Shown here piece by piece: positions 1 to 6,255 of a stretch of DNA of 6,255 bases. Each line of letters opens with the position of its first letter. The stretch's first letter is position 1. Source of the DNA: Candidatus Iainarchaeum sp. (lineage in GTDB: Archaea; Iainarchaeota; Iainarchaeia; Iainarchaeales; VGJJ01); NCBI GenBank assembly GCA_030688545.1, contig JAUYHT010000003.1, positions 1 through 6,255 of the forward strand, in the 5' to 3' direction. The notes under the pieces were generated by a model that worked only from the letters and a program-made list of their open reading frames with translations, searched no databases and had not been told where the DNA came from. The position numbers were made by a program, and so were the translations under genes.

Positions 1-219
1 GGATTGGGAGGACCCATTCACATCCAATTCCTGGCTGATAAACCCCGAATGGTCCAACGCCACAAATAAATCATCAACATACTGATCAGTAATGCGCCTT
101 TCTTCAAAGAGGGTCGCGGGTTGCGTGGGGAGGGAGCTGAATACTAATACCCCCACCACGAGGATGAGGGCTAACACCACGTCCGCGCTGAACGCAAATC
201 CCTGGGGGTTAGGTCGCAT
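1..219 (-). CDS. Class III signal peptide (archaeal type IV pilin-like) protein; 5' part only, runs off the left edge; absent from the supplied ORF track
   Basis: Reverse-complement translation from ATG (219..217) gives MRPNPQGFAFSADVVLALILVVGVLVFSSLPTQPATLFEERRITDQYVDDLFVALDHSGFISQELDVNGSSQS, open for all 73 codons to position 1. It has a short polar leader, G|F, then a roughly 20-residue hydrophobic helix. GGAGGT (complement 228..233) lies 8 nt upstream of the ATG. The start overlaps the end of the upstream gene by 11 nt. Confidence 0.6.
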   Translation of the reverse strand, partial: MRPNPQGFAFSADVVLALILVVGVLVFSSLPTQPATLFEERRITDQYVDDLFVALDHSGFISQELDVNGSSQS

Positions 220-724
220 ATACGGTGACCTCCACCAGGGTTTCTTTTCCATTGAGGGTGGCGAGGCGCTGCACCACGCTTCGATGGGCGGAGGAGGGAG
301 GAGCTTGTCCAGTGGCGAGGAATGGGCCTCCTGAGAATGTGATGTAGAATTCGAATGGGTTGACTGACAGCCTGGTTTTAGTGAACGCGTAGTCCAGATT
401 CCCCAGGTTCACGAATGCCACTACTTTATCGGGATCCAGAACCCGGTCTTTCTGGGCGAGGCCGAACGCCTTCACCTGGTTCAAGTCTGAAATGTCCTCC
501 CAATTGGATGGATCCCCGGGATTCTTGATGATGAACTCAGCGATGTTGGCGGCCACCACATCCAGCCCTTTCCGGGCGATGGATTGTTGGGTCTGGGATT
601 GGACGTCATTCATGTAGCCCAAAAGGCCCACCACAATGACCAGGAATAATCCGGTGGCGAATAATACGTCGGGCATGCTTACCTGCGCTTTGGGGGGAGC
701 GGGGGCGATTGGTAATGAATTCAT
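209..724 (-). CDS. Class III signal peptide (pilin-like) protein, 171 aa
   Basis: N-terminus MNSLPIAPAPPKA|QVSMPDVLFATGLFLVIVVGLLGY: Lys at -2, Ala at -1, Gln at +1, then a hydrophobic helix. The QVSM tetrapeptide is shared with the 532-aa protein. AGGTG (complement 730..734) lies 5 nt before the ATG. There is an ATGA start/stop overlap with the upstream gene at 721..724. The rest is soluble and beta-rich with no recognisable enzyme motif. Confidence 0.8.
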   Translation of the reverse strand: MNSLPIAPAPPKAQVSMPDVLFATGLFLVIVVGLLGYMNDVQSQTQQSIARKGLDVVAANIAEFIIKNPGDPSNWEDISDLNQVKAFGLAQKDRVLDPDKVVAFVNLGNLDYAFTKTRLSVNPFEFYITFSGGPFLATGQAPPSSAHRSVVQRLATLNGKETLVEVTVYAT

Positions 725-1875
725 GTGAACACCTGTTCCGCCACTATTTTCCCAAAGGGGTTGATGAGCGTGGCTTTAGTGCCGGGAATATTCCATAACG
801 TCTGGTTAAGGTCCAAATAGATGGTGGTAGGGGTATTGGTTCCCTGTCCGGTGTGAACCCGCGCGGCCCCATGGAGGATATAGGGTTCGGGAAACGTGAT
901 GAGGGGCACATCATCCCGGAGCAGGGTGAAATGGGATAGTTCCAATGATTGGAGGGCGAGGAATTCAAGGAATTCCTTGGCGATACTTCCTTCGTCGAAC
1001 TCCACCTCCGAGATGATGACTAATGGATTTCCATCCGGACCGAAGCCGGGGTTGTCATACCCGCAGTCGGCGCTGTAATAGAGGGGGATGATTTGGTAGA
1101 CGCACGAGGTACCGTCGCAGGAATACGCTTGCCATACTTTGGTCGTATCGACGCAAGTGAATGTGTCGGGGCCGCATGTTTCCTGTGTGCAGACCCCTCC
1201 TTCGTCATCGTCGGAGAGGAGCGCATCATCCCCGATAGCTTCCTCGGTATCAGTTTCGGGGGTGAAGGCCGCGGATTCGTTCCCCCAGACGCGGTCGAAT
1301 AGCACCCGGTACACGGACACGATGTGTTCTTCACAGGCCACCTCAATGACATCGGGGGCTTGCGCATACAGTCGGGGGTCAGTGCCGAATATCACCGATT
1401 CCCCATCAATGAGGAGGAAATTAGTGGCCACAAATTTGGTCACGGACTTAATACGAATGTGCGCCCCTTCGAGGAAGAATTGGGGGTTGAGGGTGGGGTC
1501 TAAGATCAATCGAACGGTTACCCCCCGCTTGATGGCCTGGCGCAAATGATCGCGGAACTCTTTAGGAGCGGGGGTGCGCAGGATGGCGTCGATTGTGTGA
1601 CTGGCCGAGTCCACCTGCACCACTATTTTCTCGAGGCAGTCAAGGTGAGTGCAATCGAATGAGAGGGAACATTGGTCATTAGCCAGGGCTTTGGCCGCTG
1701 ATACACTTAACCCGGGGATGACGTCCGGATTGACGTGGGGGGTGGTGTCCCCTGGAGCGGGGGGCAGAGGGTCAGGAAATAATAAGATGAGGGCGCCCGC
1801 CACGAGGATAAGGACAATGGGCCCCACTAACCATTTCCATTCGAAGCGGAAGGGAATAAGCTCAGGGGCGGCCAT
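721..1875 (-). CDS. Membrane-anchored protein: N-terminal TM helix, PLD/Nuc-like domain with degenerate HKD motif, acidic Cys-rich linker, C-terminal lamin-tail domain (LTD)
   Basis: TM anchor WKWLVGPIVLILVAGALILLF (aa 13-33). Residues ~78-197 fit the PLDc_2/Nuc pattern by eye (IDAIL..., LRQAIKRGVTVRLILD, ...FLLIDGESVIFGT..., ...VLFDRVW). Linker TPETDTEEAIGDDALLSDDDEG is followed by 6 Cys in aa 229-271. Residues ~284-383 fit the LTD pattern (VIISEVEFDEG...EFLEF...LSHFTLLRDD..ITFPE.YILHGAARVHTGQG...LWNIPGTKATLINPFGKIVAEQVF). GGTGATC (complement 1880..1886) lies 4 nt before the ATG. A 1-nt spacer separates it from the upstream stop. Confidence 0.85.
   Translation of the reverse strand: MAAPELIPFRFEWKWLVGPIVLILVAGALILLFPDPLPPAPGDTTPHVNPDVIPGLSVSAAKALANDQCSLSFDCTHLDCLEKIVVQVDSASHTIDAILRTPAPKEFRDHLRQAIKRGVTVRLILDPTLNPQFFLEGAHIRIKSVTKFVATNFLLIDGESVIFGTDPRLYAQAPDVIEVACEEHIVSVYRVLFDRVWGNESAAFTPETDTEEAIGDDALLSDDDEGGVCTQETCGPDTFTCVDTTKVWQAYSCDGTSCVYQIIPLYYSADCGYDNPGFGPDGNPLVIISEVEFDEGSIAKEFLEFLALQSLELSHFTLLRDDVPLITFPEPYILHGAARVHTGQGTNTPTTIYLDLNQTLWNIPGTKATLINPFGKIVAEQVFT
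727..1026 (-). other. Lamin-tail domain (LTD) coding segment, aa ~284-383 of the 384-aa protein
   Basis: By-eye match to the LTD consensus (IsEv....eFvEl.N....dLsGw.L.d.....y.fP....l.pg....v.tg.g........lWnn.gd.v.L.d..G..vd.v.y). Confidence 0.7.
1405..1428 (-). other. Degenerate HKD catalytic motif (A150-T-N152-F-L-L-I-D157) of the PLD-like domain
   Basis: Reverse complement of 1405..1428 reads GCC ACT AAT TTC CTC CTC ATT GAT = ATNFLLID. Against the canonical H-x-K-x4-D, His is replaced by Ala and Lys by Asn, while Asp is kept. The downstream GS.N is GTDP here. Confidence 0.7.
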
Positions 1876-1876
1876 C

Positions 1877-3475
1877 TCAGATCACCACCAGGTTGAGGTT
1901 ATCAAAACTAATAATGACGCCCTCTCGAGGAGTATCCCAGTCGCCCAAGCCCCCACCCAAATCAATGTAATAGGTCCCTGGTCCCGTGACCAAAGACGTG
2001 AGATTTTGGACATGAAATCGGGTGTCCGCCGAGGGGTTTTCTTTAAACCAAATCTCGGGGGTGGGATCGGCATCCACCGCACCAATGTCGAGGTCGCTTC
2101 CCAAAAACGTAATGGTGTTCTGGTCGTGGAACCGGAGCTTGACCCAGGATTCCTCTCCATTGTCCAAAGCATTGCTTCCCGTGGGATCGGGGTCAATGGA
2201 ATAAAGGAAGCTGAACCGGAGTTTCTTTCCAGCTGTGAGGAGGGAATACATATCCGCGTTCACGTCGAATTGTATTCCAAAAGCCCCGGAGGTGACCATG
2301 CCAATGGTGGCATTATCATCCGGGTTGATAGGAGAATTAGGCACGATCCCCGGCCCCCCCATGCGGAGGTCCAGACTTTGAGTGAGGGGGACTTGGGAAT
2401 CCGAGGTGTTCTTGTCATAATTGGGATCGGCATTGAACTGCACCCCCGCGGGGATGGTACCCCCATAGGTTAGCTTATCCCAGTCCCACCCATCATTCCC
2501 TATATTGAAATCAATTCCAAAGGTGTTGGCGACGCTGTTGACATCCGTGGAGAAATCCAATGGTTGGGGGAGATCATTCCCGTGTTCCCATAAGTCAATG
2601 AGATATCCTTGCTGGGTGAAGTTGACGTCGATGAACCCATAGTCGATGGAAATGGTTTGCCCCACCCCCGCGGGCTCATACGTCATGCGGATACGGGCAT
2701 TGTTAGCTTGGTTGTAGTCCGTGATGCACCAGCTCAAATCGGGAGATGAATAATAGGTTTCCGAAAAATAAGGGGTGTAGGGCTCGATATCCACCCATTG
2801 AGTGTTGTCCCAGCATTGCACCATGTTCTGAGGCCCGTTCAATCCCACGTGGTAGGATTCGAAGTGCTTGATGTGCACGAATACGGAGTTGATGATGTTG
2901 GCGCTGGTGAGCCCTAAATTGTTGAACCGGAACTCCACCCAATCCGGGTTCTCGTTGGGGTTGTCGTCGGAGATCGCATACAGCGCGTCATCGGCCCCTA
3001 CCTCCACCCTCCACGTCTGATTCTGGTCATCGATGAGGAGAAATATCCCATTGCTCACATCCCCACCCCCACTTGGGTCATTGGGGGGGGTGAATGGGTT
3101 GTAATTCGTATCATTCGTGAAGATGACCGTGCCATTCAGGTCGAATGCTTTCACAATGCCCCGGTAGAGTTGCACATTGGACACACTCCCTAATACGGGG
3201 CACAACGCGTCTCCCACCAGGACAAAATTGTTGGTGATGTTCGCGTCCTGCAACAGTTCGAATTTAGTCTCGGTGTAGGGGGGGTTGGAACTCATGTATG
3301 TGATAATGGAAGAAAGCTGGATGCACACCTCCTCCTCCCCCACATTCTGTTGAAGCCGGGCGGAGGATTGTTTGTTTTGTTCGATGAGGAGGAGCGCCAC
3401 GACGAAGAGCATCAGGAGGAAGAGGATGGAGGAAAGCACTTCCATGCTGACCTGGCCGGATTGAACGGGAGTCAT
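1877..3475 (-). CDS. Large class III signal peptide (pilin-like) protein, 532 aa, with extended beta-rich C-terminal domains; putative tip/adhesin subunit
   Basis: N-terminus MTPVQSG|QVSMEVLSSILFLLMLFVVALLLI with Gln at +1 and Glu at +5. GGTGA (complement 3480..3484) lies 4 nt before the ATG. There is an ATGA overlap with the upstream gene at 3472..3475. The remainder is N/D/T/G-rich with 8 N-x-S/T sequons and only 4 Cys. The C-terminal end ...GVIISFDNLNLVVI is reminiscent of lectin/CBM-type beta-sandwich terminal strands. Confidence 0.85.
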   Translation of the reverse strand: MTPVQSGQVSMEVLSSILFLLMLFVVALLLIEQNKQSSARLQQNVGEEEVCIQLSSIITYMSSNPPYTETKFELLQDANITNNFVLVGDALCPVLGSVSNVQLYRGIVKAFDLNGTVIFTNDTNYNPFTPPNDPSGGGDVSNGIFLLIDDQNQTWRVEVGADDALYAISDDNPNENPDWVEFRFNNLGLTSANIINSVFVHIKHFESYHVGLNGPQNMVQCWDNTQWVDIEPYTPYFSETYYSSPDLSWCITDYNQANNARIRMTYEPAGVGQTISIDYGFIDVNFTQQGYLIDLWEHGNDLPQPLDFSTDVNSVANTFGIDFNIGNDGWDWDKLTYGGTIPAGVQFNADPNYDKNTSDSQVPLTQSLDLRMGGPGIVPNSPINPDDNATIGMVTSGAFGIQFDVNADMYSLLTAGKKLRFSFLYSIDPDPTGSNALDNGEESWVKLRFHDQNTITFLGSDLDIGAVDADPTPEIWFKENPSADTRFHVQNLTSLVTGPGTYYIDLGGGLGDWDTPREGVIISFDNLNLVVI

Positions 3476-3903
3476 ATGTTCACCACGTGTACGTTTACAT
3501 CCCCCATCGTCACGCGCAAAGTATAGGGCCCTTGTTCGAAGAATAGGAATCGGGAATCGATATGGGCCTTGGTGAATGCAAACACATGAGTGGGGCTTCC
3601 CCCTTGGTGGAGGGTGGCGATCACATAGTTTTGGTCCACTCGCAATTCCGACAGGCCTTGAGGAAGGGTGATGTTCAAAAGAATGGAGTTGCCCGGCCCT
3701 TTGGCATAGACGAAGTCCACCGCCGAGGAGAGGGAGTCCACCGCGGCCTGCGTTTGGACAAGTTGGATGGATTGGGAATAGATGGTGAAAGCATACGCAA
3801 AAAGGATAACCACGACGATCAGGAGGAAGGTAGTGAAAATGAGGTATTCGAAACCCACTTGTCCTCGGGAAGATGCCATGAATCCTCCCATCGAAACCGC
3901 CAA
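3472..3903 (-). CDS. Small class III signal peptide (archaeal type IV pilin-like, DUF361-like) protein; first gene of the operon
   Basis: ...ASSRG|QVGFEYLIFTTFLLIVVVILFAYAF has Arg at -2, Gly at -1, Gln at +1 and Glu at +5. The start is uncertain. The ORF-track start at 3903 is a TTG preceded by GGAGG (complement 3913..3917) with a 9-nt spacer. In-frame ATGs at 3891 (MGGFMASS) and 3879 (MASSRGQ, preceded by GGAGGA) are alternatives giving shorter leaders. Confidence 0.8.
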   Translation of the reverse strand: MAVSMGGFMASSRGQVGFEYLIFTTFLLIVVVILFAYAFTIYSQSIQLVQTQAAVDSLSSAVDFVYAKGPGNSILLNITLPQGLSELRVDQNYVIATLHQGGSPTHVFAFTKAHIDSRFLFFEQGPYTLRVTMGDVNVHVVNI

Positions 3904-3949
3904 TAAAAAACCCCTCCGCGGAAAAGAGGGTAAAGGGCGGGAAATGGGT

Positions 3950-3999
3950 GGTTTATATTGGGGGATAGGCGCGTTTAAAGCCAGAATGACTTATGTATA
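3950..3999. promoter_or_regulatory. Divergent promoter region with candidate TATA-like boxes
   Basis: The 132-nt gap between the divergent starts at 3903 and 4036 contains TTTATATT (3952..3959), palindromic TTTAAA (3974..3979) and TTATGTATA (3991..3999). Their spacing is compatible with transcription starts roughly 25-30 nt away in either direction. No transcript data, so assignment to a strand is a guess. Confidence 0.35.
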
Positions 4000-4002
4000 G
4001 GC

Positions 4003-4031
4003 GAGTGGGGGCAAGGATAGGGGAGTGGGGG
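4003..4031 (+). repeat. Direct repeat GAGTGGGGG x2, 20 nt apart, in the leader of the plus-strand gene pair
   Basis: GAGTGGGGG occurs at 4003..4011 and 4023..4031. The second copy overlaps the SD-like GGAG/GGAGG just upstream of the ATG at 4036. Confidence 0.5.
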
Positions 4032-4035
4032 AGGC

Positions 4036-4614
4036 ATGACCGAGACGAAAGAAAGGTTCTACCGTGTTCTCCTTGAGAAATACGCGGGAATCATCAACCA
4101 GAACGAGCAGCGCACGGTAGGGGAGATCAAGGCGCTCGTCGACCCCATGGACCCGGGGGTGCAAGGGTTGCTCCAGGAATTCAAACCCACCCCATATACG
4201 TTTGAGCGGGATTATCTTTTCACGGCCCAGCAGGTGTTCGAGCACATCACCCAAGAAATCAAGTATGTTCCTAATGACTTGACTATCAATTTCTGGCTGA
4301 AGCCCCATGAAATACTGGCCAACAAAGTGGCCGATGATGAAGATTTGGCCGTGCTCGTATGCACGGTGTTACATGCGTTGGGGGACGAGAATGCCATGGT
4401 CGTGCTTATGGAATTAGAGAATCTGACGACGCACGCGGTGGTTTTGACAACGGTGAATGGGAAGACACTGCTCCTGGACCCCTGCACGGGACATAATTTT
4501 TTCAAGTATCATGGCGAAAAATCCCATGTGTTCAAGCGGTATCATTTCAATGGCCAACGAATCAAGCGGGCCTTGTATCGGTTTAACGCGCAGATGTACG
4601 AACAGTTCATCTGA
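4036..4614 (+). CDS. Transglutaminase-like (papain-fold) domain protein, 192 aa, with the catalytic Cys position occupied by Asp
   Basis: ILANKVADDEDLAVLVCTVLHALGDENAMVV...THAVVLTTVNGKTLLLDP aligns by eye to the Transglut_core pattern G.C.dFA.lfvallRalG...HaWvev....g.W..lDp. D-L-A matches d-F-A. His133 (4432..4434) and Asp148 (4477..4479) are in place. Asp101 (4336..4338) sits at the nucleophile position. That this ORF is coding is well supported (longest ORF, SD-like GGAG upstream); the fold assignment is less certain. Confidence 0.6.
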   Translation: MTETKERFYRVLLEKYAGIINQNEQRTVGEIKALVDPMDPGVQGLLQEFKPTPYTFERDYLFTAQQVFEHITQEIKYVPNDLTINFWLKPHEILANKVADDEDLAVLVCTVLHALGDENAMVVLMELENLTTHAVVLTTVNGKTLLLDPCTGHNFFKYHGEKSHVFKRYHFNGQRIKRALYRFNAQMYEQFI

Positions 4615-4659
4615 CGGGGTGGGTGACATATAGATAAAGAGAAAGGAGTTGTGAGATTA

Positions 4660-5763
4660 ATGGAATGGGAAGTGCATGGGACGGCCTTGCGTCAATTAGC
4701 ACAGTATTGGCATTCTATTTTAGAGGGGGGATATGTGCAGCAACTCCGGGGGGTGGGAACAGACACCTTTGTTCTGCGGATGCACACCAAAAATGGGAAT
4801 ATTGAATGGGCTATTCGACTGCCTGGGGTCATTACCCAAACCCTCCGGAAATGGACGCCCGAAGAAAAACAGCCAGGATTCGTGAATGCCACCAAGACAG
4901 GGTTGGCGAATGCCCGAATCATTGGAGTAAGGCAGCATGGGATGGACCGCGTGCTCGTCCTGGAATGCGAGGAAGGGTCATTAGTCATCGAATTGTTCGG
5001 AAAGGGAAATCTGGTGTGGGTAACATCCAATGGGACGATTGGCGCGGTGCTCCATGCCAAAGAATGGCGTACCCGCACGATGAAACGAAACCACCCTTAT
5101 GTGTTTCCCCCAGGCCCCCCCGATTGGGAAGCATTACCCGCAACGGGGGACAATACTCCTTTTGAGGGAACATGGGGCGCGTGGTGGGTGACACGAATGG
5201 GGGTTCCTCGAGAGTGGGTGGAATATGTGTGCGAGCGAGTACGCGTGGAAAAGGATGCCCCGTGGACAATGGATGCGGCGACATGGGATTTGGTTAGGCA
5301 TACTTTGAAAGAGTTGGTTGCATCACTCGTGCCCCAATTTGAAATAATTAAGAGTGAAAAGAAGAATGTCGTACTAGTTCTGCGTGTGGACGACACCGTA
5401 AAAGAAGGATTAGATCAAGAGGCGTTGTTTTCCCGACTGGATGCCATTTTGGTTGAAACCACTCCGGAGGCTGCCCCATTGTCAACGACAGATCAGGCAC
5501 GGAAGGCCTTGGAGGTGAACCACGCGCGGCAGGTGGCGATGATGAAGGCGTGGGAAACGGAAGCGGCATCTTTACAAGTCAGTGGGGAATGGGTCTACTC
5601 TCATTTCGAAATGGTGGAGGAATTGCTCGAGGCGGTGCGGCGGGGACGCGCGTTAAACGTGTCGGATGCGCACGCCCTCTTTGAATTGAAGAAGATCGTT
5701 GGGGAAGTGACTAAAGTGGATGTGGCGGCCGGAACGATCGAATTGGAAGTGGAAAAGGAGTAA
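4660..5763 (+). CDS. NFACT family protein (RqcH/Rqc2/NEMF-type ribosome quality control factor homologue), N-terminal half only: NFACT-N + HhH + first coiled-coil helix
   Basis: Strong by-eye match to NFACT-N: GGYVQQL, PGFVNATKTGLANARIIGVRQHGMDRVLVLE (conserved D-R at 4945..4950), LVIELFGKGNLVWVTS, RNHPYVFPP. This is followed by an HhH-like WWVTRMGVPREWVEYVCERV and a long helix ending ...GEWVYSHFEMVEELLEAV. The ORF track starts at GTG 4651. I prefer ATG 4660, which is 11 nt after GGAG (4645..4648), versus 2 nt for the GTG. Confidence 0.85.
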   Translation: MEWEVHGTALRQLAQYWHSILEGGYVQQLRGVGTDTFVLRMHTKNGNIEWAIRLPGVITQTLRKWTPEEKQPGFVNATKTGLANARIIGVRQHGMDRVLVLECEEGSLVIELFGKGNLVWVTSNGTIGAVLHAKEWRTRTMKRNHPYVFPPGPPDWEALPATGDNTPFEGTWGAWWVTRMGVPREWVEYVCERVRVEKDAPWTMDAATWDLVRHTLKELVASLVPQFEIIKSEKKNVVLVLRVDDTVKEGLDQEALFSRLDAILVETTPEAAPLSTTDQARKALEVNHARQVAMMKAWETEAASLQVSGEWVYSHFEMVEELLEAVRRGRALNVSDAHALFELKKIVGEVTKVDVAAGTIELEVEKE

Positions 5764-5794
5764 TGGGCCCTCAGGGGAGTGGGTCCCCATGGTG

Positions 5795-6061
5795 TTATTC
5801 GCCCATACTGGTTATTTCGCGCTCGTCCACGATGAATACATCGGAGACCGCCGTGACGGCCGCATACGGGACTTGAATAATCCGGTCCTGCAGGTTGGCT
5901 TTCTTGATGACCCTGGATTCGGCATCCACTTCGACGATTAAGGCCTCAATATTCCCCGTTCCTTCGTCCACGAGCAGATCGGAGAGACGCCCTACTTCAT
6001 CCCCTCGATTGGTAATAACGCGTTTGGTCGCCAATTGGCGGGCAATGGCATATTTGTACAT
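5795..6061 (-). CDS. Stand-alone PRC-barrel domain protein, 88 aa
   Basis: ARQLATKRVITNRGDEVGRLSDLLVDEGTGNIEALIVEVD...IIQVPYAAVTAVSDVFIVD fits the archaeal PRC-barrel pattern (l.gk.V....G..lG.v.Dl.vD...g.ie.Livev.....i.vPy..V..v.d.iiv). GGGGG (complement 6071..6075) lies 9 nt before the ATG. The gene is convergent with the NFACT gene. Confidence 0.85.
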   Translation of the reverse strand: MYKYAIARQLATKRVITNRGDEVGRLSDLLVDEGTGNIEALIVEVDAESRVIKKANLQDRIIQVPYAAVTAVSDVFIVDEREITSMGE

Positions 6062-6097
6062 ATTCTAAAACCCCCTTGTGCATCATGGACCACGCTG

Positions 6098-6112
6098 AGC
6101 TATAAAAGGCTT
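6098..6112 (-). promoter_or_regulatory. Candidate BRE/TATA element for the PRC-barrel gene
   Basis: The minus strand reads GGAAAAGCCTTTTATAGC, a purine-rich stretch followed by TTTTATAG. It is centred about 43 nt upstream of the ATG at 6061, which would give a short leader containing the SD-like GGGGG. Confidence 0.3.
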
Positions 6113-6143
6113 TTCCTTGACCCGTGGCCCGCAGCCCAATGGT

Positions 6144-6173
6144 CCTCCCCGGCGAAAATCTTCCGGGGGGAGG
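6144..6173. repeat. GC-rich inverted repeat (hairpin) in the right-hand intergenic region
   Basis: CCTCCCC (6144..6150) pairs with GGGGAGG (6167..6173). Alternatively CCCCGG (6147..6152) pairs perfectly with CCGGGG (6163..6168), with loop CGAAAATCTT. Function unknown: possibly a terminator if a minus-strand gene ends at 6191, otherwise a regulatory or structural element. Confidence 0.3.
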
Positions 6174-6233
6174 CGTTTATCATGTAGGGTTTAGAGCTTT
6201 TTGATGGGCTTCCGGGGTTTGGAGGGGGGATAC

Positions 6234-6255
6234 ATGTCCCGCAGGGCCTCGCGTT
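6234..6255 (+). CDS. Possible 5' end of a plus-strand gene (MSRRASR...) running off the right edge
   Basis: ATG at 6234 is preceded by GGAGG (6221..6225) with an 8-nt spacer, the spacing seen before other genes here. An A/T-rich stretch GTTTATCATGTAGGGTTTAGAGCTTTTTGAT (6174..6204) upstream could hold a TATA box. Only 7 codons are visible. A minus-strand reading ending at 6191 is an equally open alternative. Confidence 0.25.

Follow-up and report, generated by a model that had tools for sequence, protein, structure and literature searches.

We have analysed a stretch of 6,255 bp from Candidatus Iainarchaeum sp. (contig JAUYHT010000003.1, positions 1 to 6,255, apparently the complete contig, ~53% GC; hereafter the window), whose positions 1–3903 are filled by five closely packed minus-strand genes that we name A to E (G1 to G5). 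It is quite likely that these genes are the promoter-proximal pilin half of an 11-gene type IV filament operon conserved in Iainarchaeales (Diapherotrites, DPANN). Taken as one system, the operon most likely serves an ultrasmall archaeon as a pilus for adhesion or attachment. It is no new kind of machine, but a modified version of the known type IV filament systems, and the archaeal systems with two platform genes (Epd/Tad-like) are the closest to it. A previous reading made from the DNA letters alone, called here the sequence-only reading, had described a translationally coupled five-gene cluster; according to the orthologous loci, this cluster is no self-contained unit but the 5' part of the longer operon.

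Conservation of the operon in Iainarchaeales

Gene C of the cluster has 34 homologues in a collection of 5.8 billion proteins, all of full length, 51–58% identical, and all from metagenome-assembled genomes of Iainarchaeum/Diapherotrites. We have compared the loci in a complete Ca. Iainarchaeum genome (L001, CP064981.1), in a 212-kb contig (L002) and in 15 GTDB species (L004–L018). The gene order is identical in all of them. Genes for a PRC-barrel protein, an NFACT_N protein and a transglutaminase-like DUF553 protein lie on one side, and the pilus operon runs divergently from them in the order A-B-C-D-E-F-G-H-ATPase-T2SSF-T2SSF. That is, the five genes which the sequence-only reading had put together are co-localised in the relatives and keep their order. 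The orthologous products have 134 (A), 528–572 (B), 382–391 (C), ~170 (D), 1050–1211 (E), ~330 (F), ~376 (G) and 170–272 (H) amino acids, followed by 496 for the T2SSE ATPase and by 297 and 338 for the two T2SSF proteins. Judged by these loci, an operon of ~13.5 kb is represented in the window by its first four and a half genes, next to the flanking ones.

The genes of the assembly machinery stand at the distal end of the operon. In every orthologous locus that is long enough, a secretion ATPase is found six genes downstream (T2SSE, E 8e-39), and two consecutive T2SSF genes for TadB/C-like platform proteins come after it; in the relatives, the ATPase and platform genes are located ~6 kb past the position where our contig ends. 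The nearest relatives of the ATPase in the PDB are GspE2 of Archaeoglobus (afGspE, 2oap; 4e-69), then FlaI, and then CpaF (3e-51). Of the machinery genes which the sequence-only reading had proposed to look for in the flanks, a FlaI/CpaF-type ATPase and two platform genes are present in the orthologous loci, directly downstream of the pilin genes.

Three further genes precede the ATPase. Gene F, which according to the orthologous loci lies just beyond the contig end, is a fifth prepilin-like gene. Gene G codes for an ectoprotein with a transmembrane (TM) anchor and a weak match to PKD. Gene H, directly before the ATPase, codes for a small, Pro-rich winged-helix protein. The C-terminal winged-helix region of H matches the N-terminal extension of the ATPase from a related locus in other archaea (L019:13872–15722; E 4e-5; see below), so from these alignments H looks like a split-off N-domain of the ATPase. 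The N-terminal motif of H (L001:17462–18280), GLFAGLAKILHLHQLP, is also conserved. As for G (L001:16304–17434), it is the least conserved member of the operon, with 27–36% identity between species. Besides the TM anchor it contains a stretch rich in Cys, its C-terminal region looks FN3-like (by eye only), and it does not occur in the sister systems.

From the list of open reading frames (ORFs) and from direct reading, the genes in the window are arranged as follows, all on the minus strand. Gene A (3472–3879) codes for 135 residues from a conserved ATG start at 3879; the mechanical ORF, 3472–3903, opens with TTG at 3903, and the ATG at 3879 is likely to be the true start. Gene B (1877–3475) codes for a prepilin-like protein of 532 residues, gene C (721–1875) for a non-pilin bitopic membrane protein of 384 residues, and gene D (209–724) for another prepilin-like protein of 171 residues. 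Gene E is present with its first 73 codons (1–219) and continues past the contig end. The genes are joined by an ATGA overlap at 3472–3475 (A/B), a 1-nt spacer at 1876 (B/C), a second ATGA at 721–724 (C/D) and an 11-nt overlap at 209–219 (D/E). The A/B overlap (-4) and the D/E overlap (-11) are found again in most orthologous loci. Each start is preceded by a purine-rich motif of the Shine-Dalgarno (SD) type, GGGAGG for A, GGTGA for B, GGTGGTGAT for C, AGGTG for D and GGTGGAGGT for E, and that of gene A is the strongest in the operon. The five minus-strand ORFs, their junctions and the SD-like motifs described in the sequence-only reading have all been recovered. Its size classes hold in part: a giant subunit exists, but it is E (judged by the size of its orthologues) and not B. 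The non-coding stretch that separates the operon from the divergent transglutaminase-like gene (3880–4035) presumably carries the operon promoter, with A/T-rich boxes AATATAAA and TTTAAA.

Class III signals of the pilin-like proteins

Four of the five products in the window begin with a prepilin-like N-terminus, namely MASSRG↓QVGFEY in A, MTPVQSG↓QVSMEV in B, ...PPKA↓QVSMPD in D and MRPNPQG↓FAFSAD in E (the arrow marks the predicted cleavage site). These termini are as the sequence-only reading had quoted them, and the two proteins in which it had noticed Glu at +5 are A and B. Across 13–15 species, the motif [KR][GA]↓Q/F/V and the following uncharged hydrophobic stretch of ~20 residues stand at the same positions throughout each of the families A, B, D, E and F. 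The leaders vary in both sequence and length (4–16 residues, occasionally longer), while the region of the cleavage site is invariant. For the individual families the motifs read [KR][GA]↓QVG[LF]EY in A (invariant in 12 orthologues), [KR]G↓QVS.E in B, [KR][GA]↓Q[AV][ST].PD in D, [KR][GA]↓FAFSAD in E, and [KR]G↓[VI]LFTFL in F. In addition, a strict six-frame pattern scan of the 21-kb loci picked out only operon genes of the A/B/D/E/F type, and C and G, which have no prepilin motif, appear as ordinary bitopic anchors in the same operon. Overall, the class III signals predicted in A, B, D and E are conserved far beyond chance. The assignment of such signals to four products, already made in the sequence-only reading, is well supported by this conservation in 13–15 species, by the restriction of the motifs to the operon, and by the linkage to T2SSE and T2SSF genes.

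On the other hand, the profile searches that the sequence-only reading had suggested for class III pilins came out negative. For Class_IIIsignal/DUF361 (PF04021), no window protein gives a match at E<=1 in the Pfam scan, and only a pilin from a sister locus reaches this model, under the cut-off (E 0.0018). The Epd pilins of Methanococcus maripaludis have leaders of 5–13 residues with Gly as the last one; Gln follows at +1 and Glu at +5, possibly as a determinant of EppA (PMC3875500). A and B show this pattern of a short Gly-ending leader, Gln+1 and Glu+5; D has Gln+1 with Pro+5/Asp+6, and E and F differ. Therefore, of the earlier suggestion that Gln at +1 marks DUF361/Epd-type pilins, the agreement with the published Epd pattern stands, while the profile match to DUF361/Class_IIIsignal does not.

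We also note that the B leader in the window (3455–3475) has no basic residue at all, although K/R stands at -2 in nearly all B orthologues, and that the E leader (199–219) likewise misses the basic residue at -2 found in most of its orthologues. These substitutions may be relevant to recognition by the peptidase.

Predicted roles of the pilin-like genes A, B, D and E

Gene A has the mature N-terminus of Flp/Epd-like pilins, with Gln+1, Glu+5 and Tyr+6. Its family profile finds nothing meaningful among PDB sequences, and Pfam scans of the individual members give only scattered weak matches, including a weak TadE match in a single member (E 0.038). Since A is the smallest product, is encoded first, has the strongest SD motif and carries Glu+5/Tyr+6, it is the likeliest bulk or major subunit, unless a stand-alone major pilin is encoded elsewhere.

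In the AlphaFold2 (AF2) model of gene B (pLDDT 80), a continuous helix of 53 residues (11–63) is followed by all-beta domains, which is the plan of type IV pilins. Foldseek relates these domains to SGBP-B, CBM22, CBM16 and reelin repeats with low TM scores. As the scores are low, only the fold class (jelly-roll/CBM-like) can be claimed and no specific ligand. According to the model, B is a probable lectin-like minor pilin or adhesin with tandem jelly-roll/CBM-like domains. Its C-terminal half is also conserved in 700–800-residue proteins of the sister pilus loci.

Gene D may belong to a distant DUF7287-like family. In a comparison with DUF7287 (PF23958), 13 of 15 members match end to end, with a best E of 2e-5 and all under the gathering score of 27 bits; the copy in the window gives E 0.025. 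Searched against PDB sequences, the D family profile yields nothing meaningful.

The orthologues of gene E combine a class III signal with a VWA domain (1e-12 in L001, with the MIDAS motif DRSGS) and LVIVD beta-propeller repeats (1.6e-39 in L001). VWA and beta-propeller are the domain pair of PilY1/TadG-type adhesins, and the match is one of architecture only. Thus gene E, of which the window holds the first 73 residues, is predicted from its orthologues to be a giant adhesin in which VWA and beta-propeller parts are joined to the N-terminus of a pilin.

Gene C, a membrane-anchored pseudo-enzyme with an LTD

Gene C differs from its neighbours in the operon. Its TM anchor (residues 14–34; 1774–1836, minus strand) has no G/A cleavage motif before the helix, and the juxtamembrane motif RFELKW (in the context IPxRFELKWLxGP) is conserved ahead of it. 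C as a cleaved pilin can be ruled out, as there is no G/A at -1 and RFELKW is conserved there instead. The AF2 model (pLDDT 73) shows the TM helix (residues 14–32), a confident alpha/beta domain, a Cys-rich stretch of low confidence and a beta sandwich (residues ~280–384).

The alpha/beta domain (residues ~57–205; 1261–1707, minus strand) has the fold of PLD/Nuc-like proteins by both Foldseek and profile comparison. The structural matches are PLD (7e0m), Zucchini (4gel), NucT (6ehi), TrmB (2f5t) and FAM83 (5lzk), with E values from 1e-5 to 3e-7, and Nuc is matched by fold as well, with FAM83 representing the pseudo-PLD proteins. The family profile finds MitoPLD/Zucchini (E 9e-4) and Nuc (0.013) among PDB sequences. 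However, the HKD motif, canonically H-x-K-x4-D, is degenerate: it reads A150-T-N152-F-L-L-I-D157 in the window (1405–1428, minus strand). The profile aligns 'FVATNFLIID' with 'YMHHKFAIVD' of Zucchini, so that the catalytic His is replaced by Ala and the Lys by Asn, and the later GSxN of the motif has become G-T-D-P (D157-x6-G164). None of the 27 homologues examined retains the H or the K, while A/S/T150, N152, D157 and G164 are conserved. Because the catalytic His, Lys and Asn are lost, C should be a catalytically dead pseudo-enzyme, and judged from these substitutions it cannot act as an HKD phosphodiesterase, PLD or nuclease. An active nuclease or PLD is ruled out for C by the loss of this motif.

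After an acidic linker follows the Cys-rich module (C229...C271; 1063–1191, minus strand). Ten Cys are invariant in the homologues, which suggests that the ectodomain is extracellular and disulfide-bonded. The C-terminal part (residues ~279–384; 724–1041, minus strand) is a lamin-tail domain (LTD), an Ig-like beta sandwich, as indicated by Foldseek and profile. It matches the lamin Ig folds 3jt0, 1ifr and 3gef (E ~1e-5, TM(target) 0.66–0.70), and the family profile reaches Pfam-verified LTD proteins with E values down to 1e-20. Direct Pfam evidence is more limited. PF00932 is precomputed for 12 of the 34 homologues and is 'weak' in two that we examined; the window copy falls below Pfam detection for PF00932 and reaches PLDc_2 with E 4e-4, under the cut-off. 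The Pfam scan alone is therefore sub-threshold for PLDc_2 and blank for LTD, and it is the family profile and Foldseek that bring out the two domains. Taken together, evidence from fold, profile and motif agrees with the sequence-only reading of this gene as a membrane-anchored protein with a catalytically degenerate nuclease fold and an LTD. The ectodomain is acidic throughout (net charge -3 in the PLD part, -11 in the Cys module and -10 in the LTD; pI ~4.1–5.8).

An exhaustive profile search of 1.84e9 cluster representatives found the full-length architecture of C in one 50%-identity cluster only, and all the other matches cover one of the two domains. This suggests that the two-domain PLD+LTD architecture occurs only in the Iainarchaeales lineage. 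The matches to the PLD part are mainly small TM-anchored proteins, most of them with an intact HKD motif (bona fide PLDc_2), while several of the LTD matches that we checked are SNase+LTD or PKD+LTD proteins. Among the matches, P0098, P0116 and P0076 are extracellular proteins combining SNase (staphylococcal nuclease) with LTD, and P0098 has the Cys-rich module of C as well (C..TTK..Y.C....C.Y...DCGY..P). The pattern suggests a mobile 'Cys module + LTD' cassette that may have been joined to different nuclease folds. Gene C looks like an inactivated derivative of this 'secreted nuclease + LTD' theme, apparently fixed in the pilus operon of one archaeal order. For the nuclease ExeM, the LTD is dispensable for extracellular DNA degradation in vivo, while the activity fell in vitro, and a role in membrane or envelope targeting has been suggested for prokaryotic LTDs (PMC6085458). 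The architecture of C most likely points to a non-catalytic accessory for adhesion, binding or anchoring. The remark in the sequence-only reading that no archaeal pilus with such a component is known agrees with the literature, in which our search found no PLD-fold/LTD protein in a pilus locus; for LTD in pilus loci, DUF7287 and Iainarchaeum pili, it gave nothing relevant.

Two of the homologues bear names that point elsewhere. P0010 is publicly named 'TrmB family transcriptional regulator sugar-binding domain-containing protein', and the UniRef name of P0031 begins with 'Transcription r'. C does match Regulator_TrmB with E 0.009, but this match rests on the common PLD-like fold. The names are probably misleading, because C is a TM-anchored, disulfide-rich ectoprotein; these features, together with the lack of an N-terminal winged helix, rule out a TrmB-like regulator.

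Sister systems in other archaea

Through distant homologues of B (35–40% identity over the C-terminal half) and homologues of D, we have found sister loci in L019, L020, L022 and L023. Their gene order is B-like, A-like (~130 residues), D-like (~165–182), E-like, F-like, ATPase and two T2SSF. The B-like proteins are longer (697–805 residues, with an assembly break in L022), the E-like ones have only ~140 residues, and the F-like ones ~285–300. The ATPases have 612–632 residues with an N-terminal winged-helix extension, and that of L023 begins with a Zn-finger plus a winged helix-turn-helix. Three of the loci also have a KaiC-like gene on the upstream side, close by in L023 and at a greater distance in L019 and L022. 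In L019 and L023, a further classic pilin (MDLKG↓QGATEYLIIL) follows the platform genes. The upstream region of L019 also contains response regulators and histidine kinases.

Homology to the Iainarchaeales genes is clear for B (6e-64), for D (5e-20; hhalign probability 98.8) and for the ATPase (48% identity). A, E and F are called here positional equivalents, since hhalign gives them 15–28% and their correspondence lies in the N-terminal motif and the position only. The sister loci have neither C nor G, and their E-like genes are without the VWA/LVIVD insertion. Based on this comparison, the Iainarchaeales system can be described as a putative five-pilin core with three lineage-specific ectodomain additions, i.e., C, G and the VWA/propeller part of E.

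Comparison with known type IV filament systems

Among the archaeal systems, clade/System 1 combines an ATPase and two TadC proteins with five or more class III minor pilins and with large adhesins of the PilY type (Makarova 2016), and it includes the Epd pilus of M. maripaludis and some DPANN systems (Sivabalasarma & Albers 2026). Transglutaminase-family peptidases have been linked to the clade 1 pilus loci (Makarova 2016). The present operon resembles it in several respects: a single ATPase comes with a pair of platform genes, five or more class III proteins are encoded together with large adhesin-like ones, leaders of 5–16 residues end in Gly/Ala, Gln+1 and Glu+5 occur, and a transglutaminase-family gene adjoins the locus. 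Makarova et al. (2016) likewise model clade 1 with multiple minor pilins and large adhesins, which fits the earlier view of this multi-pilin operon as a minor-pilin/tip module. On the other hand, its pilins have no detectable homology to the DUF361/Class_IIIsignal models, the operon locus has no EppA or FleN/MinD gene, and descriptions of System 1 mention neither C and G nor a VWA/LVIVD expansion of E. Moreover, weak PilB3_C, DUF7287 and DUF7262 signals point to the euryarchaeal clade 2 sets. On this sequence evidence, the operon cannot be counted as an established full member of System 1. In DPANN, T4P loci whose pilins are unrecognisable 'dark matter' have been noted before (PMC6393860).

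With the bacterial Tad/Flp systems, the operon shares the CpaF-like ATPase (E 3e-51), the split platform, the G↓xxxxEY motif in A, and a VWA pilin like TadG. However, A has ~130 residues with a globular domain while Flp has ~50, and there are no secretin or outer-membrane parts. The bacterial priming complex FimU-PilVWX-PilY1 and the GspH-K set of the T2SS are similar in another way: several low-abundance pilin-like subunits are encoded in one operon together with a large VWA + beta-propeller adhesin, and the subunits without Glu+5 (D, E, F) would be the candidates for the tip. Here the difference is that the adhesin domains are fused to the pilin N-terminus in E, as opposed to the separate PilY1. 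The likeness to these sets is architectural, without sequence homology.

Gene C has its own set of relatives. With the single-HKD, TM-anchored nucleases Nuc, NucT and Zucchini/MitoPLD it shares the PLD fold, the N-terminal anchor, a preceding Cys pair and the D(x)6G(S/T) framework; it differs by the replacements of His by Ala/Ser/Thr, of Lys by Asn and of Asn by Pro, and by being extracellular and fused to the Cys module and the LTD. The pseudo-PLD domains (FAM83 DUF1669, TrmB effector) have the same fold, but C is not a transcription factor. ExeM and the SNase+LTD proteins (P0076, P0098, P0116) also place a nuclease-type domain before a C-terminal LTD; in C, however, the domain is of the PLD type and inactivated, and the gene lies inside a pilus operon. 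Finally, C is comparable to ArlF/ArlG, the stator/anchor proteins of the archaellum, in being bitopic and uncleaved, with an extracellular beta sandwich, and encoded in a type IV filament (TFF) operon. There is no match in sequence or fold, and C has the extra PLD-fold domain, so this would be a functional analogy.

Proposed mechanism and alternative explanations

For an adhesion or attachment pilus, we propose the following mechanism. A prepilin peptidase coded elsewhere would cut off the leaders of 5–16 residues, after which the ATPase (with H) and the split platform would pull the hydrophobic N-terminal helices out of the membrane and build them into a polymer. A would be the bulk subunit of the filament, while B, D, E and F would form a minor-pilin priming or tip complex. 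Such a complex could show adhesive domains, i.e., the CBM-like jelly rolls of B and the VWA + beta-propeller of E (PilY1/TadG-like). C and G would stay in the membrane as accessory ectoproteins, and C, at the base of the machine, may tether the filament or the cell to a ligand in the envelope or on a host surface. By analogy, C could be like the ArlF/ArlG-type anchors or like co-expressed adhesins.

Several observations weigh against this interpretation. Of the assembly machinery that was sought around the locus, the ATPase and the platform were found but the peptidase was not; the 10 kb on either side of every locus showed no gene for a prepilin peptidase. The window ends before the ATPase and platform genes, and their presence here follows from orthologues at ~55% identity. 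Pfam, NCBIfam and PDB sequence searches give no pilin model that matches A or B, D reaches DUF7287 only below the threshold, and in the window B (MTPVQSG) and E (MRPNPQG) do not have the K/R at -2 that is present in most orthologues. The hhalign probabilities of A, E and F against the sister genes (15–28%) are above the cross-controls but not significant. The role of C is read from its architecture alone, and nothing in the sequence separates a long pilus from a short pseudopilus.

In view of gene C, one may ask whether the filament captures nucleic acids as in competence. C would then be an inactivated nuclease acting as a membrane receptor for DNA or RNA, like ComEA/NucT, and a retracting filament would hand its catch to an uptake route that feeds a DPANN cell unable to make nucleotides. 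Several features of C fit this idea: in sequence, its PLD domain is nearest to the nuclease branch of the superfamily (to Zucchini/MitoPLD and Nuc, and weakly to NucT), small TM-anchored HKD proteins are the closest of its remote relatives, the LTD and this Cys-rich module are found again in extracellular nucleases of the SNase+LTD type, the nuclease ExeM also has an LTD, and D157, G164, S/T165 and several invariant Arg/Lys are retained. However, none of the residues binding the scissile phosphate (His, Lys and the Asn of GSxN) is retained, and the ectodomain is strongly acidic, so that a nucleic-acid role of C is disfavoured by both. In addition, the locus has no ComEC-like channel, retraction ATPase or active nuclease, the LTD of ExeM is dispensable in vivo for DNA degradation, and the sister systems have the same pilin set without C. 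From these features, an archaeal counterpart of the competence pilus, with C binding nucleic acid or another phospho-ligand and the captured DNA or RNA serving nucleotide scavenging or the uptake of genes, seems unlikely. We know of no nucleic-acid-capturing system with a type IV filament that has been characterised in archaea.

The filament may also be short. A pseudopilus or surface-display stub, comparable to the T2SS pseudopilus or the Sulfolobus bindosome, would present the ectodomains of B and E on the surface or push them through the S-layer, with C and G as a collar. The set of one small and four larger pilin-like genes does parallel GspG + GspH-K, an abundant small stand-alone major pilin is not obvious near the Iainarchaeales loci, and functionalised TFF machineries with class III signal binding proteins have been proposed to be widespread. 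Yet A has the Glu+5/Tyr+6 of the filament-forming Flp/Epd pilins, the sister loci L019 and L023 carry the extra classic pilin (KG↓QGATEYLIIL) after the platform genes, and the filament length is not set by anything in the sequence. We regard such a stub as distinctly unlikely. A still simpler view, in which the four N-termini are ordinary uncleaved signal anchors of unrelated, co-transcribed surface proteins, could appeal to the absence of any pilin match in Pfam or NCBIfam among the window proteins and to B and E of the window lacking K/R at -2; the FlaFind pattern, too, might reject A, E and F. It is hardly credible, since five families keep [KR][GA]↓Q/F/V at fixed positions in at least 13 species although their leaders are free to vary, and since the genes are always linked to a T2SSE ATPase and two T2SSF in two divergent lineages. 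The 53-residue helix in the B model is pilin-like, and the plain anchors in the same operon (C and G) look different, without the motif.

The attachment pilus remains our preferred reading, and it gives the operon some general interest. The DPANN archaea, most of them uncultured, are ultrasmall and believed to rely on contact with other cells, and their surface machinery is largely 'dark matter'. With the present annotation, a block of 'hypothetical proteins' becomes an 11-gene type IV filament operon for the order Iainarchaeales, in which a putative five-pilin core is elaborated by lineage-specific modules (the E insertion, C and G). It offers concrete candidates for attachment to a host or surface; a connection with the capture of nucleic acids is unlikely but can be tested. 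Studies of the cell-surface biology of DPANN could reasonably take the operon as a target.

Neighbouring genes and minor observations

Scans of the window for tRNA genes and Rfam families were empty, and the PHROGs scan of the window proteins gave no viral signal. The transglutaminase-like gene (4036–4614, plus strand), which is divergent to the operon, keeps its syntenic place in all 15+ loci. It codes for a cytoplasmic, DUF553/CEP76-peptidase-like protein with an apparent Cys-His-Asp triad and without a signal peptide. Next to it, the NFACT_N/RqcH-like gene (4651–5763, plus strand) codes for 370 residues (290–312 in the relatives), compared with 645 positions in the archaeal RqcH model, and scores 127 bits, far under the cut-off of 400 bits. 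From this it appears to be a truncated or divergent homologue of the ribosome-rescue factor.

In one orthologous locus, the ATPase gene (L004:17453–20488) is split by an intein of ~515 residues with a LAGLIDADG homing endonuclease (Pfam Intein_splicing 4e-20, LAGLIDADG_3 1e-20). The intein sits after 'LTIED' in the Walker B region and ends with '...VVCHN↓TRE' (the arrow marks its end). A gap of equal size is found at the same position of the ATPase in L008 and L014.

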